From: Dictyostelium discoideum
Taxonomy: Eukaryota
Length of the DNA: 64,000 bases
Assembly (NCBI GenBank): GCA_000004695.1
Contig: CM000150.2
Location: forward strand, 1,536,001-1,600,000
Reading direction: 5' to 3'
Shown here in pieces: positions 54,745 through 58,019 of the stretch (its first letter is position 1; every line of letters starts with the position of its first letter). The notes below the pieces were generated by a model. It was not told where the DNA came from. It did not search any database and saw nothing but the letters and a program-made list of their open reading frames with translations. The position numbers and the translations under genes are program-made.

Positions 54745-55284
54745 ATGTTAATTAATAAAGATAAATTCAACGAAGAATATTGGATTAAAAAATTAGATTT
54801 AGAACCTCATGTTGAAGGAGGAAGATTTAAAGAAGTATTGAGAAGTGTTGAAATTGATAATCAAGGTATGGAAATATGTAATTTTACATCAATTTATTAT
54901 TTATTAAATGGAGAGTCAAAATCACATTTCCACAGACTCGCAAATTCAGATGAAGTTTGGTATTATCATTTTGGTGGAACATTAACAATACATTGTATTT
55001 ACCCAAATGGAACTTATGAAAAGGTACTACTAGGTCCGAATGAAGGTGAGATTTTACAATTCAATGTTACCAAAAATACAATCTTTAGTGCATCATATGA
55101 TAATGAAAATAATAATCAATCATCAAATTATAATTATTGTTTAGTTGGTTGTATGGTTTGTCCAGGTTTTCAATATAGTAATTTTGAATTTTTAAAAAAA
55201 TCAGATCTATTAAATTTATACCCACAACATTCAAAATTAATTAAAACATTCGCATTTGATACTTTACCAGAAATGCCAATGTAG
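54745..55284 (+). CDS. Cupin-fold protein of the DUF985 (cupin_5) family, 179 aa
   Basis: N-terminal LDLEPHVEGGRFKEV and the downstream pattern YYLL.G.S.SHFHRL..SDEVWYYH.G are characteristic of DUF985 (yeast YML079w-like) proteins. Confidence 0.7.
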   Translation: MLINKDKFNEEYWIKKLDLEPHVEGGRFKEVLRSVEIDNQGMEICNFTSIYYLLNGESKSHFHRLANSDEVWYYHFGGTLTIHCIYPNGTYEKVLLGPNEGEILQFNVTKNTIFSASYDNENNNQSSNYNYCLVGCMVCPGFQYSNFEFLKKSDLLNLYPQHSKLIKTFAFDTLPEMPM

Positions 55285-55384: not shown

Positions 55385-57342
55385 TTAATAACCAATTGAA
55401 AAACCTGAAATTATATGAGCTTGTTTTAAACCACCAGTTGAAGCAGTCATACCAATGAAACAAGATTTATTTTCATGTAAATTTAATAATTTTTGGATAT
55501 TTGCTTTTATTTTATATAAAACTTGATATTTATCTAACCAAACATCAATTGTACTATCACCATCATCACCATTTGAAGTTGAATATTTAATAAAACATTC
55601 ATGTTCAATACCATCATTCATTGGTTTATTATTTTTTGGATTACCATAACCTAAAGAGAATCTATGATGAGAAGAATTTGGTTCTAATGATCTAGTATGA
55701 ATTGAAATATGATTACCATCTGGGTCTTTACAATGATCTTTTGTTGGATAAGTATCAAATTCTATTGCAATTGAATTTCTAATACCTTGATAACCTAAAC
55801 CACAACCACCAATACCAAGTGAATTGATTGAATCATTTTGAATTACAAATGCCATACCATCAGCACCATTAGTTTTAATTAAAAATTTAAATTTACAAAT
55901 GAAACCACCATTTGAAATGATATCAATTCTTTCCTTTATCCAAAATCCACCAACTCTATCATTTTCATCAGGTGTTAAACAAATACCATTCTTTGTAATA
56001 TCACAATTACCAACCAATTTCAATGATTCTCTTGCTTTTGAAATTGAATCTAAAGAATAAATTGGTTTTAAAATTATTGGTATTTCACTTTGTTGTTGTT
56101 GTTGTTGTTGCTGTTGTTGATTATTATTACCAGATTCACCTCTATTATTTCTCCATTCTGATGAACCAGAAATTCTACCAGTTAAATCACTACTATAAGT
56201 TCTTTGATGATAGGATTGTTTTTCATTATCTTCTAAGAATTCTCTATTTAAAATTGAACGTAATTCATCAAATGGTAATGTTGAACGAATTTGATGATTT
56301 AAATGATTTAAATAATTGGTTAGATCAGATTCACTAATTAAATATCGATTGAGATGAGGTAACTTTATTGAGTATCTAGAGGTGACATCGTAGATACCAT
56401 TGAATTCGAATGCAAATACGTAGGACAATTGTTTACCCCAACCACCTTCATAAGTTAGTGGACTGTCATAGGTTGCTTCACAACTATCGACATGTATCCA
56501 TCGACCATCAATGTAAACTTCATTCCAAACATGGTCGGTGAAATCCAAGATGTATCTAGTTGTAAAACCCAATGCAATAGAAAACAGAGTGAATGCATTC
56601 GCCCATTCACCACATCTTCCACATTTAGTTGATAGTAGTTTCTCGACAGAGTTGTATCTTGGGAATCTTGTTACGTGATTACTTGCACATCGGTATACCT
56701 CAACTATTGATACTTGATGTGACTGTTCTTCAAATGTTGGTCTATCACTACCAACTGAACTAGTCGATGGTGTACCACATTTAATATCTGAACATTCAGG
56801 TGAATTTGTCCATGTGAAATATTCATTCTTAAACCAATCCAATAACATTAACATCTTTCTCTTTAAATCTTTCTCTTTCTTTATCTCCAACGGTACTTGA
56901 TCTAATGCCATCTGTTGTAATCTATCAGAGTTATAGCTAATCATATTTCTATACATTCCTTCAATTTTATTCTTTAATCCATTTTCAATTTTAATTGGTA
57001 ATTTAAATGATTTTAAATTTGATAATAAAATTTTTTGATTCTAAATTTTTTTTTTTTTTTTTTTTTTTTATATTATTAGAGAAATTTGATATATTATACA
57101 ATAATATATAAAGTTTTATTATTATTTTTATTTTTATTTACATTTAAAACAATAATTTTTTCAGTTGGCGAAGGATCTCTTAATTTTGAATTTGATAAAT
57201 AATAAAATCTTTGAAATGTTGGATCAACATCTGTAACTGAAAAAACTAATATTTGAAAATCTTCATATGTGCATTCATTTTCAACTTCTACTAAATATTC
57301 TTTATCATTATATATTAAATTTATAGTTTTAGATTGATTCAT
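55385..57342 (-). CDS. Peptide:N-glycanase (PNGase/NGLY1-like, transglutaminase-fold) with an N-terminal ubiquitin-like exon and a C-terminal legume (L-type) lectin-like domain; 2 exons (57342..57142, 57040..55385; ~618 aa)
   Basis: Core: KCGRCGEWANAFTLFSIALGFTTRYILDFTDHVWNEVYIDGRWIHVDSCEA, the PNGase Cys-His-Asp catalytic-triad region. ORF 57342..57094 (MNQSKTINLIYNDKEYLVEVENECTYEDFQILVFSVTDVDPTFQRFYY...) ends at a GTAAAT donor after VLN (57142). The acceptor aaaatttag (AG 57042/57041) joins phase 0 to NQKILLSNLKSFKLPIKIENGLKNKIEGMYRNM..., in frame with the 523-aa ORF. C-terminal ~230 aa: GFWIKERIDIISNGGFICKFKFLIKTNGADGMAFVIQND...GGCGLGY...AIEFDTY...IDVWLDKYQ...CFIGMTASTGGLKQAHIISGFSIGY, which looks like a concanavalin/L-type lectin fold. 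Confidence 0.75.
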
Positions 57343-57659: not shown

Positions 57660-58019
57660 TTAATTACAACCACATGAACCAGAATAATAACCATAGCTAT
57701 AACTATAACTGTAAGTTGATCCTGATGCAGTTGTATATGAACCTGCATTAGAATCAATGTTAGTATAATCAGAAGGTAATCTTTTTCTACCATTACCACC
57801 ATTACTACCACATGAACCACATGCAATTGAATTAGAACCCATTGATAAACTTGATCCACCACCATTTGCAACACTTGATTTGCTTGATTTCATTGGGTTT
57901 GAAATTGAAATTAATGATGCTAAAAACAATTTATAATAATTGTTAAAATTAGTTTTTTTTTTTTTTTTTTTTTTTTTTTATTTTAAATATGTATTTTAAA
58001 ATTTACATAAAATGCTCAT
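57660..58019 (-). CDS. hssA/2C/7E-family-like small Gly/Ser/Cys/Tyr-rich protein, array copy A (exons 58019..58007 and 57919..57660; ~90 aa)
   Basis: 13-nt first exon ATGAGCATTTTAT (MSIL plus one base), GTAAAT donor, acceptor ttgtttttag. Exon 2 encodes [39 protein letters not shown]...[17 protein letters not shown]-stop. Confidence 0.6.

Follow-up and report, generated by a model that had tools for sequence, protein, structure and literature searches.

Gene structure and identity

The window, a stretch of 64,000 nucleotides of Dictyostelium discoideum DNA (contig CM000150.2, positions 1,536,001 to 1,600,000), carries on its minus strand a gene made of two exons, whose ATG is at 57342 and whose stop codon ends at 55385. 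Exon 1 (57342..57142, 201 nt, phase 0) encodes codons 1–67, and exon 2 (57040..55385) encodes codons 68–618 followed by the stop TAA (55387-55385). They are separated by a phase 0 intron of 101 nt (57141..57041, also on the minus strand) which has the form GTAAAT...TTTAG (GT..AG), and whose GC content is 7%, compared to 28.5% in the exons. Without splicing, reading from the ATG leads to a stop after 82 codons.

The spliced product of 618 amino acids matches D. discoideum AX4 DDB_G0268168 (UniProt Q55FC8) with 100% identity and 100% coverage, so the splice sites proposed from the sequence are those of the annotated gene model. The coordinates of the gene and of its intron given by the sequence-only reading are exact, and the peptides that it quoted (TINLIYNDKEYLVEVENECTYEDFQILVFSVTDVD, ADGMAFVIQN, GMTASTGG and HIISGFSIGY) are all present in the product. 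D. discoideum has a single copy of the gene for cytoplasmic peptide:N-glycanase (PNGase; PNG1/NGLY1, EC 3.5.1.52), and this locus, DdPNGase, is that gene.

Exon 1 alone forms an 82-codon open reading frame (57342-57094) which ends within the intron, and it could be taken for a separate small gene, or for a spurious reading frame, outside the PNGase gene. This is extremely improbable. The two exons are joined in frame by a canonical GT..AG intron, the product equals the annotated protein, and exon 2 completes the ubiquitin-like domain (UBL) that begins in exon 1. The junction, VLN|NQK(I/V), is kept in the alignment of orthologues, and the orthologues of seven dictyostelid species align over 99–100% of the query. 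RT-PCR with intron-spanning primers has also been published for DdPNGase (PMC3502110), which counts against a separate gene. We therefore reject exon 1 as a separate gene and keep the two-exon model.

Previous work on DdPNGase

Gosain, Lohia, Shrivastava and Saran (BMC Biochem 13:9, 2012; PMC3502110) have described the same gene and the same protein of 618 amino acids. The layout that they published consists of a PNGase core, a beta-lectin legume domain of 223 amino acids at the C-terminus and an N-terminus with weak similarity to UBQ, which they named a "probable de-ubiquitinating UBQ domain". The same lectin had already been reported there for the PNGase of Naegleria. Cell lysates deglycosylate denatured ovalbumin, not native ovalbumin, and this activity is lost in the knockout, which grows more slowly and aggregates poorly (PMC3502110). 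A 2022 review (PMC9102325) mentions the N-terminal UBL of plant PNGases and lists F5/8C for rice. A literature search for a broader treatment of PNGases with an L-type lectin returned nothing beyond these two publications.

The architecture of DdPNGase is already known: it was published in 2012 and is picked up by standard domain databases. The sequence-only reading had presented its accessory domains as non-canonical. Neither this framing nor novelty is supported, since the architecture has been published for this exact protein (PMC3502110) and the association of the core with an L-type lectin is widespread. What the present analysis adds to PMC3502110 is a re-reading of the N-terminus as a UBL, the observation that this UBL extends across the intron, a map of the metal ligands of the lectin, and an explanation of a weak match to the PAW domain.

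Catalytic core

The PNGase catalytic core, transglutaminase-like and with a putative zinc-binding subdomain, spans residues ~84-345 (56207..56992, minus strand) and was delimited with phmmer, Pfam and Foldseek. Searched against the PDB with phmmer, it matches mouse PNGase (2f4m) with an E value of 1e-51 and 38% identity, and yeast Png1 (1x3w) with an E value of 4e-45. The Pfam family Transglut_core scores 57.4 bits. In the AF2 model the core has a pLDDT of ~90, and Foldseek aligns this model with the PNGase structure 2f4o (E 1e-21, TM 0.83).

The catalytic triad consists of Cys210 (56614-56612), His237 (56533-56531) and Asp252 (56488-56486), all encoded on the minus strand and checked in the sequence. 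Among 32 orthologues His237 is invariant, and Cys210 and Asp252 are nearly so (≥90%). The putative zinc subdomain contains C150-x4-C155 and C185-x3-H189 instead of the pair CxxC/CxxC: there are four potential ligands, but with altered spacing and identity. The assignment of the enzyme core to the cytoplasmic PNGases, which had been made from the sequence, is therefore borne out.

The core is homologous to that of animal NGLY1 and mouse PNGase, whose domain order is PUB-core-PAW, and the overall logic is the same in both: an adaptor to the ubiquitin system, the core, and a C-terminal beta-sandwich which presumably binds glycans. However, DdPNGase has no PUB domain and has an L-type lectin in place of PAW. 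It also has a core homologous to that of yeast Png1 (1x3w, 3esw), which consists of the core only. Png1 lacks accessory domains and relies on Rad23 to reach the proteasome, whereas DdPNGase has a built-in UBL and an appended lectin.

The segment between the core and the lectin

The core is followed by a conserved motif, GRISGSSEWRNNRGESG (residues 355-371; 56129..56179, minus strand), found in the alignment of 32 orthologues. Motifs of this type (GRxSGSxEWRxxRGE) are common to PNGases whatever their C-terminal domain, and also occur in the PAW-type, plant and oomycete enzymes; animal NGLY1 has it after the core as GRxSGSxxWRxxRGE. Next comes a linker of ten glutamines (10 x CAA/CAG, residues 375-384; 56090..56119, minus strand), which is predicted to be disordered. 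In the full-length AF2 model the pLDDT of residues 350-383 is below 50, and both the length and the composition of the linker differ between Dictyostelium species.

The absence of the PUB and PAW domains, another claim of the sequence-only reading, is confirmed. Pfam finds no match to PUB (PF09409) at E ≤ 1 in the N-terminal region. PAW (PF04721) scores 18.7 bits, compared to a cut-off of 31.4, and the match covers only positions 1-24 of the 197 positions of the profile; the top 50 Foldseek matches of the AF2 model include no PAW structure. The match falls at residues 355-378 because that is where the universal post-core motif lies. A vestigial PAW domain was considered and rejected: the match is limited to the first 24 profile positions, and the motif is also present in plant and oomycete PNGases and in all those with an L-type lectin.

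The C-terminal lectin domain

Residues ~390-618 (55388..56074, minus strand) form an L-type (legume-type) lectin domain, according to Pfam, AF2, Foldseek and profile searches of the PDB. Three Pfam families score above their gathering cut-offs: PF18483 (97.6 bits compared to 78.3, E 1e-27), PF00139 (59.8 compared to 26.3) and PF03388 (26.4 compared to 24). For the lectin (PF18483), as for the core (2f4m), the match greatly exceeds what chance would give. The region is modelled by AF2 with a pLDDT of ~90. The best fold matches of this model include the legume-lectin domain of M. jannaschii (7elv, E 3.6e-13, TM 0.77), pea lectin (2bqp, E 5.6e-12) and ERGIC-53, and Foldseek also finds PAL, FRIL, VIP36 and Emp46p. 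The lectin profile, compared with the PDB, matches 7elv (2.9e-31), PAL (5.7e-14) and ConA (~1e-11). From sequence profiles and the predicted structure, the C-terminal region is thus an L-type (legume/ConA-type) lectin domain with a ConA-like beta-sandwich and not a PAW domain. The suggestion that the last ~230 residues are an L-type lectin holds, and the PAW alternative that had been set against it does not.

The ConA numbering of the lectin residues was transferred from the profile alignment. E494, D496, Y498, D506 and H511 correspond to E8, D10, Y12, D19 and H24 of ConA, so the four side-chain ligand positions of Mn2+ and Ca2+ (E8, D10, D19 and H24) appear all to be filled. The dipeptide A460-D461, which belongs to the invariant GADG motif, is equivalent at the sequence level to A207-D208, D208 being the sugar-binding aspartate of ConA. 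Among the 32 aligned orthologues, which come from four major lineages, no variation is seen at E494 and D461 and very little at D496, Y498, D506 and H511 (≥90% conserved); in an alignment of 12 lectin sequences, E494, D496, D506, H511 and D461 are all invariant. The beta-sandwich, the signature motifs, the E, D, D and H ligands and the sugar-binding aspartate are thus common to DdPNGase and to legume lectins such as ConA, ERGIC-53, VIP36 and 7elv. DdPNGase differs from ConA at position 14. In ConA this residue is the canonical asparagine, a ligand of both Ca2+ and the sugar; in the profile alignment no asparagine is found at this position, which is Thr500 in DdPNGase and Ser or Thr across the PNGase-linked family.

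L-type lectins normally act in the secretory pathway, which is rich in Ca2+. In contrast to the secreted and luminal ones, the lectin of DdPNGase is fused to a cytosolic enzyme. DdPNGase has no signal peptide, and the whole protein, lectin included, should be cytosolic.

The domain could have kept the L-type lectin fold without binding N-glycans, and serve in regulation or in contacts between proteins, or bind another ligand. There is precedent in plant DORN1, whose lectin domain binds ATP. The presence of Thr or Ser in place of the ConA asparagine in all of the PNGase-linked family, and the low concentration of free Ca2+ in the cytosol, would fit this idea. It is nonetheless unlikely: in Amoebozoa, Heterolobosea and fungi little or no variation is seen at the four side-chain ligands of the metals or at the aspartate of GADG, the place of the lectin is taken in other PNGases by modules (PAW, jacalin, F5/8C) for which carbohydrate binding is proven or likely, and the substrate of a PNGase is a glycoprotein. 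A lectin that would bind N-glycans is the reading that we keep.

The N-terminal ubiquitin-like domain

Residues ~5-76 (57014..57330, minus strand, intron included) correspond to a diverged UBL; exon 2 opens with the codons of its final strand (NQKILL, residues 68-75). The evidence comes from profiles. A profile built from the N-termini of group-4 Dictyostelium and P. violaceum-type sequences matches the UBL of UBLCP1 (3shq) over residues 5-76, the full length of that domain, with an E value of 2.5e-5. In hhalign comparisons the group-4 profile reaches a probability of 98.9% (E 1.5e-17) with the UBLs of those other amoebozoan PNGases in which this domain is clear, but only 35% with ubiquitin itself. 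A wider N-terminal profile matches the solved UBLs of UBLCP1 (1e-11), USP14 (8e-8) and Dsk2 (7e-6). On the basis of these profile searches, residues ~5-76 appear to be homologous to ubiquitin-like domains, although strongly diverged. The sequence-only reading had proposed such a domain, confined to exon 1: the homology stands, the confinement does not, since the domain spans the intron.

UBLCP1 and USP14/Ubp6 have N-terminal UBLs which dock these enzymes on the proteasome. Among solved structures, these UBLs match the N-terminal profile best, and do so over its whole length. In D. discoideum the domain has diverged strongly by comparison: the residue equivalent to Ile44 of ubiquitin is Tyr47, the Gly/Leu pattern of clear UBLs is altered, and the sequence alone fails to match Pfam. 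Indeed, no match to ubiquitin (PF00240) is found in residues 1-124 or 1-88, where Pfam returns only noise (TPD1_C and TBK1_ULD, E ~0.07), whereas 10 of the 12 orthologue N-termini match this family. The Acytostelium and Physarum orthologues score 34.3 and 31.8 bits, above the gathering score of 25.4.

Structure prediction had been suggested as a check on both ends of the protein. It identifies the C-terminus as an L-type lectin and not PAW, but the N-terminus has a pLDDT of 40–60 in both runs, which used shallow alignments. Residues 1-88 alone, predicted from 12 sequences, have a pLDDT of 60 and a pTM of 0.28; in the full-length model, predicted from 32 orthologues, the pLDDT is below 50 for residues 24-82. 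The low-confidence strands (5-11, 14-20, 47-50 and 72-75) fit a beta-grasp, but no helix is predicted, and a Foldseek search with this model returns only noise (E > 4). Since the alignments are shallow (12 and 32 sequences), the low confidence is weak evidence.

The presence of Tyr47 and the altered Gly/Leu pattern suggest that the UBL may be decayed or re-purposed in group-4 dictyostelids. The N-terminus would then be a remnant of the ancestral UBL of PNGases which neither folds as a beta-grasp nor docks on the proteasome, and which serves as a spacer or has another role. The failure of Pfam to recognise the D. discoideum domain and the poor AF2 scores agree with such a decay, as does the loss of the adjacent Cys-rich module in the group-4 lineage. 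On the other hand, the six N-termini of the group-4 and P. violaceum type share 20 invariant columns, while the identity to more distant members is only 32-50%, which points to purifying selection, and the profile built from these sequences still finds the whole UBL of UBLCP1. A decayed remnant is rather doubtful. The N-terminus is better read, from its sequence relationships, as a UBL that serves for docking, like those of UBLCP1 and USP14, and that has its homologue in the UBL of plant PNGases.

Proposed mode of action

In the explanation that we consider quite probable as a whole, DdPNGase consists of a diverged UBL (residues ~5-76), the catalytic core (~84-345), the conserved motif, a disordered poly-Q linker and the L-type lectin (~390-618), and the lectin would, by analogy, take the role of the animal PAW domain. 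On a misfolded glycoprotein that has been retrotranslocated, the lectin would grip the oligomannose portion of the N-glycan as the core cuts the GlcNAc-Asn bond. The conservation of the Mn2+ and Ca2+ ligands indicates that this action probably needs a bound metal. The UBL is most like those with which UBLCP1 and USP14 dock on the proteasome. It would anchor the enzyme to the 26S proteasome without an intermediary, and so take the place of Rad23, through which yeast Png1 is linked, and of the contact between PUB and p97 in animal NGLY1. The roles of glycan reader and of proteasome or p97 dock are those that we infer for the two accessory domains.

Some UBL and UBX folds bind the N-domain of p97, and modules devoted to p97 binding are present in other PNGases, as PUB in animals and oomycetes and as PUL in Naegleria. 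Instead of the proteasome, the UBL of DdPNGase could have p97/Cdc48 as its docking partner, and would then be the direct counterpart in function of PUB in animals. This seems distinctly unlikely, since the best matches of the N-terminal profile are proteasome-binding UBLs (UBLCP1, USP14 and Dsk2) and not UBX domains. In addition, a UBL at the N-terminus and a PUB at the C-terminus occur together in one protist PNGase (P0043), which suggests that the two modules are not redundant. We therefore favor direct docking on the proteasome.

Two questions are thus posed by DdPNGase: can a cytosolic L-type lectin act as a reader of N-glycans, and can a built-in UBL stand in for the Rad23 or p97 link? 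They bear on how NGLY1 finds its substrates, and D. discoideum is a tractable organism for which a PNGase knockout already exists.

Distribution and evolution

Database searches and domain annotation show that the PNGase core is associated with an L-type lectin across Amoebozoa, Heterolobosea, Mucoromycota and chytrids. DdPNGase shares this arrangement with the enzymes of Naegleria gruberi (D2V850), Physarum, Acytostelium, Pelomyxa, Mucoromycota and chytrids, and the lectins have common motifs (GADG, GxGGxGLGY, EFDTYxSxDxCxDPxGNH and TGG..H). The Naegleria enzyme has no N-terminal UBL and has an extra C-terminal PUL domain, and the fungal enzymes also lack the UBL. The comparison with amoebozoan orthologues, which had been suggested from the sequence, shows that the core and the lectin are shared and that most other Amoebozoa have a clear UBL together with a Cys-rich (UBR-box-like?) module, which is missing in D. 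discoideum.

Plant PNGases (AtPNG1 type) have the same core and the same post-core motif, and their N-terminal UBL is homologous to that of amoebozoan PNGases (98.3% probability, E 2.4e-14, hhalign against the amoebozoan UBL profile). Their C-terminus, in contrast, contains no L-type lectin, but has a weak F5/8 type C likeness (17.6 bits, below the cut-off). Given its wide distribution and the UBL shared with plants, the architecture is widespread and is not a substitute specific to Dictyostelium. It is probably old.

Across eukaryotes, PNGase looks like a single core whose modules for glycan binding (PAW, L-lectin, jacalin, F5/8C) and adaptors to the ubiquitin system (UBL, PUB, PUL) can be exchanged. 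The residual value of the present case is comparative, as an example of one core that appears to have been fitted repeatedly with different modules of these two kinds. A more ambitious scenario, which we put forward tentatively, is that the order UBL-core-lectin is the ancestral layout of eukaryotic PNGases. The lectin would be a cytosolic, metal-dependent reader of oligomannose on ERAD substrates after their retrotranslocation, and the UBL would plug into the proteasome; the PUB and PAW domains of animals and the use of Rad23 in yeast would be later replacements, and in the group-4 lineage the UBL would be decaying and the UBR-box-like zinc module would have been lost.

A database search with the lectin alone recovered 21 new proteins, which are stand-alone eukaryotic and bacterial PF18483 proteins with ~33-40% identity; no clear donor lineage stands out among these matches. 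The nearest relatives of the DdPNGase lectin are L-lectin domains of the PF18483 type (bacterial/archaeal-like), and not plant lectins.

Gene structure and previous work

The gene of DdPNGase, the cytoplasmic peptide:N-glycanase (PNGase) of D. discoideum, lies on the minus strand at 55385-57342, in a window of 20.6% GC. Exon 1 (57342-57142, 201 nt, 67 codons) starts with the ATG and exon 2 (57040-55385) ends with the TAA at 55385. Both are on the minus strand, as is the 101 nt intron between them (57141-57041, GTAAAT...TTTAG), which contains 7% GC versus 28.5% in the exons. The unspliced frame runs into a stop after 82 codons. The spliced 618-residue product matches DDB_G0268168 of strain AX4 with 100% identity over its whole length, so the coordinates, splice sites and peptides quoted in the sequence-only reading are correct.

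Gosain et al. (2012, PMC3502110) identified exactly this protein (Q55FC8, 618 residues). They described its PNGase core, a weak N-terminal similarity to UBQ and, at the C-terminus, a 223-residue "beta-lectin legume" domain for binding glycans, which is also found in the PNGase of Naegleria gruberi. Their RT-PCR used intron-spanning primers. The enzyme is active on denatured glycoprotein: denatured ovalbumin is deglycosylated, and this activity is gone in the knockout, which grows more slowly and is defective in aggregation. The gene and its architecture, a ubiquitin-like domain (UBL), the core and a lectin, are thus already known. The observation made from the sequence is confirmed and its domain identities are largely right, but the architecture is not novel. 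A literature search found no paper testing the UBL or the lectin domain of DdPNGase.

A convergent ORF (54745-55284, plus strand, 179 residues) encodes a Cupin_5/DUF985 protein (Pfam 136.5 bits), and its stop is about 100 nt from that of the PNGase. Upstream on the minus strand, an ORF at 57660-57929, with a Ser/Gly/Tyr-rich tail at its end, probably represents the final exon of a different gene; 317 nt of AT-rich intergenic sequence with long poly-T/poly-A runs separate it from the PNGase ATG.

Catalytic core

Residues ~84-345 are the cytoplasmic PNGase core, as the reading had proposed. Among solved structures, phmmer matches it to mouse PNGase (2f4m, E 1e-51) and yeast Png1 (4e-45), Pfam Transglut_core scores 57.4 bits, and the core of the full-length AlphaFold2 model (pLDDT ~90) superposes on 2f4o with a TM of 0.83. 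The catalytic residues Cys210, His237 and Asp252 are all present; among 32 orthologues His237 is invariant and the other two are nearly so (at least 90%). The zinc-binding knuckles (residues ~150-155 and 185-189; 56590-56626 and 56675-56689, minus strand) are C150-x4-C155 and C185-x3-H189, a spacing unlike CxxC, and a His may replace Cys as a ligand. This form is that of the group-4 dictyostelids (the subgroup of D. discoideum), while Physarum and Naegleria retain CxxC.

C-terminal lectin domain

An L-type lectin domain makes up the C-terminus (residues ~390-618). It matches the Pfam families PF18483 at 97.6 bits (cut-off 78.3), PF00139 at 59.8 (26.3) and PF03388 at 26.4 (24). The AlphaFold2 model is confident here, and its best non-PNGase fold match is the legume-lectin domain of Methanocaldococcus jannaschii (7elv, E 3.6e-13, TM 0.77), followed by pea lectin, Pterocarpus lectin, FRIL, ERGIC-53, VIP36 and Emp46p. 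None of the top 50 matches is a structure of PAW, the accessory domain of animal NGLY1. Structure prediction therefore sides with the lectin assignment. When 12 PNGase-linked lectin domains were combined into a profile, it matched 7elv (E 2.9e-31) and ConA-type lectins (about 1e-11). Outside PNGases, the lectin domain's closest relatives (about 33-40% identity) are small PF18483 proteins that stand alone, from Acytostelium (P0121, 258 residues) and Mucoromycota, and bacterial proteins (e.g., P0134, Planctomycetota), some of which carry dockerin or T9SS sorting domains.

The same profile alignment was used to map the residues of ConA. E494, D496, D506 and H511 correspond to the metal ligands E8, D10, D19 and H24, Y498 to Y12, which binds Ca2+ via its main chain, and D461, in an invariant GADG, to the sugar-binding D208. 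Across the 32 aligned sequences E494 and D461 never vary, and D496, Y498, D506 and H511 are nearly invariant; in the 12 lectin domains, E494, D496, D506, H511 and D461 are all invariant. By analogy with PAW in animals, the domain would hold the oligomannose glycan, probably by means of a bound metal. However, the canonical Asn of ConA (N14, Ca2+ and sugar binding) is T500 in D. discoideum and Ser/Thr throughout the PNGase-linked family, which is a caveat to such a role, as is the fact that lectins of this type are normally luminal whereas DdPNGase is cytosolic.

The region preceding the lectin contains a weak Pfam PAW match (18.7 bits, residues 355-378, only the first 24 profile positions), because the motif GRxSGSxEWRxxRGE falls there (GRISGSSEWRNNRGESG, residues 355-371, 56129-56179, minus strand). 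A vestigial PAW was considered and rejected: the motif is shared by plant and oomycete PNGases, by those of the PAW type and by every L-lectin PNGase compared, and all PNGases examined have it after the core, whether PAW, L-lectin, jacalin or a plant C-terminus comes next. Judging from these sequences, it is a universal post-core element, and the first 24 positions of the Pfam PAW model seem to correspond to it. In the AlphaFold2 model the motif belongs to a low-confidence linker, together with a run of ten glutamines (CAA/CAG, residues 375-384, 56090-56119, minus strand) just before the lectin domain. Other Dictyostelium species have Asn/Gln runs of differing length at this site; P. violaceum has none.

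N-terminal ubiquitin-like domain

Residues 1-124 of D. discoideum alone have no Pfam match. Orthologous N-termini align well, 10 of 12 match PF00240, and Acytostelium and Physarum exceed its gathering score. The profile of all 12 finds the UBLs of UBLCP1 (1.3e-11), UBFD1-like 1v86 (2e-11), USP14 (8e-8) and Dsk2 (7e-6). A six-sequence profile (group-4 Dictyostelium and P. violaceum-type) matches the UBL of UBLCP1 over residues 5-76 (E 2.5e-5). Its probability of a match is 98.9% (E 1.5e-17) for clear amoebozoan UBLs but only 35% for ubiquitin itself. Since these orthologue-based profiles match UBLs, homology is well supported. AlphaFold2 did not confirm the fold: modelled by itself (12 sequences), the domain reached pLDDT 60 and pTM 0.28, in the full-length model (32 orthologues) its pLDDT is below 50, and a fold search with the N-terminal model returned noise.

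The reading had placed the UBL in the first exon, but the domain ends at ~76, and exon 2 contributes its last strand, NQKILL. Exon 1 is therefore not a separate gene. By analogy with UBLCP1 and USP14/Ubp6, the UBL could dock DdPNGase on the 26S proteasome and replace links through Rad23 or between PUB (the other NGLY1 accessory domain) and p97, although the D. discoideum domain is diverged, with a Tyr at the position equivalent to Ile44 of ubiquitin.

Distribution among PNGases

In the genomes sampled, the association of the core with an L-type lectin reaches beyond Dictyostelium: every member of the Dictyostelia covered has it, as do Physarum, Planoprotostelium and Pelomyxa, Heterolobosea (Naegleria, Willaertia, Acrasis), where a C-terminal PUL domain is added, and Mucoromycota and chytrids. 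In contrast, animal PNGase has PUB and PAW, that of Phytophthora jacalin and PUB, and that of Symbiodinium thioredoxin and F5/8C. A 2022 review (PMC9102325) mentions that plant PNGases have a beta-grasp UBL and that an F5/8C domain is present in rice. The DdPNGase-type UBL is homologous to the plant N-terminus (hhalign 98.3%, E 2.4e-14), and is also found in Anaeramoeba and in one protist PNGase that has both PAW and PUB.

Most amoebozoan PNGases outside group 4 have a Cys-rich module of ~70 residues between UBL and core (P0009, residues ~100-185; P0010, 140-235; also P0011, P0012, P0018 and P0026, in the orthologue alignment A6), with the pattern W..EC.RIY...QP.F...C..C..TC...C.C...CLF. It has been lost in P. 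violaceum and in group 4, D. discoideum included. The module matches no Pfam family, and its profile weakly matches UBR boxes (UBR4, E 0.05; FBXO11, E 0.6).
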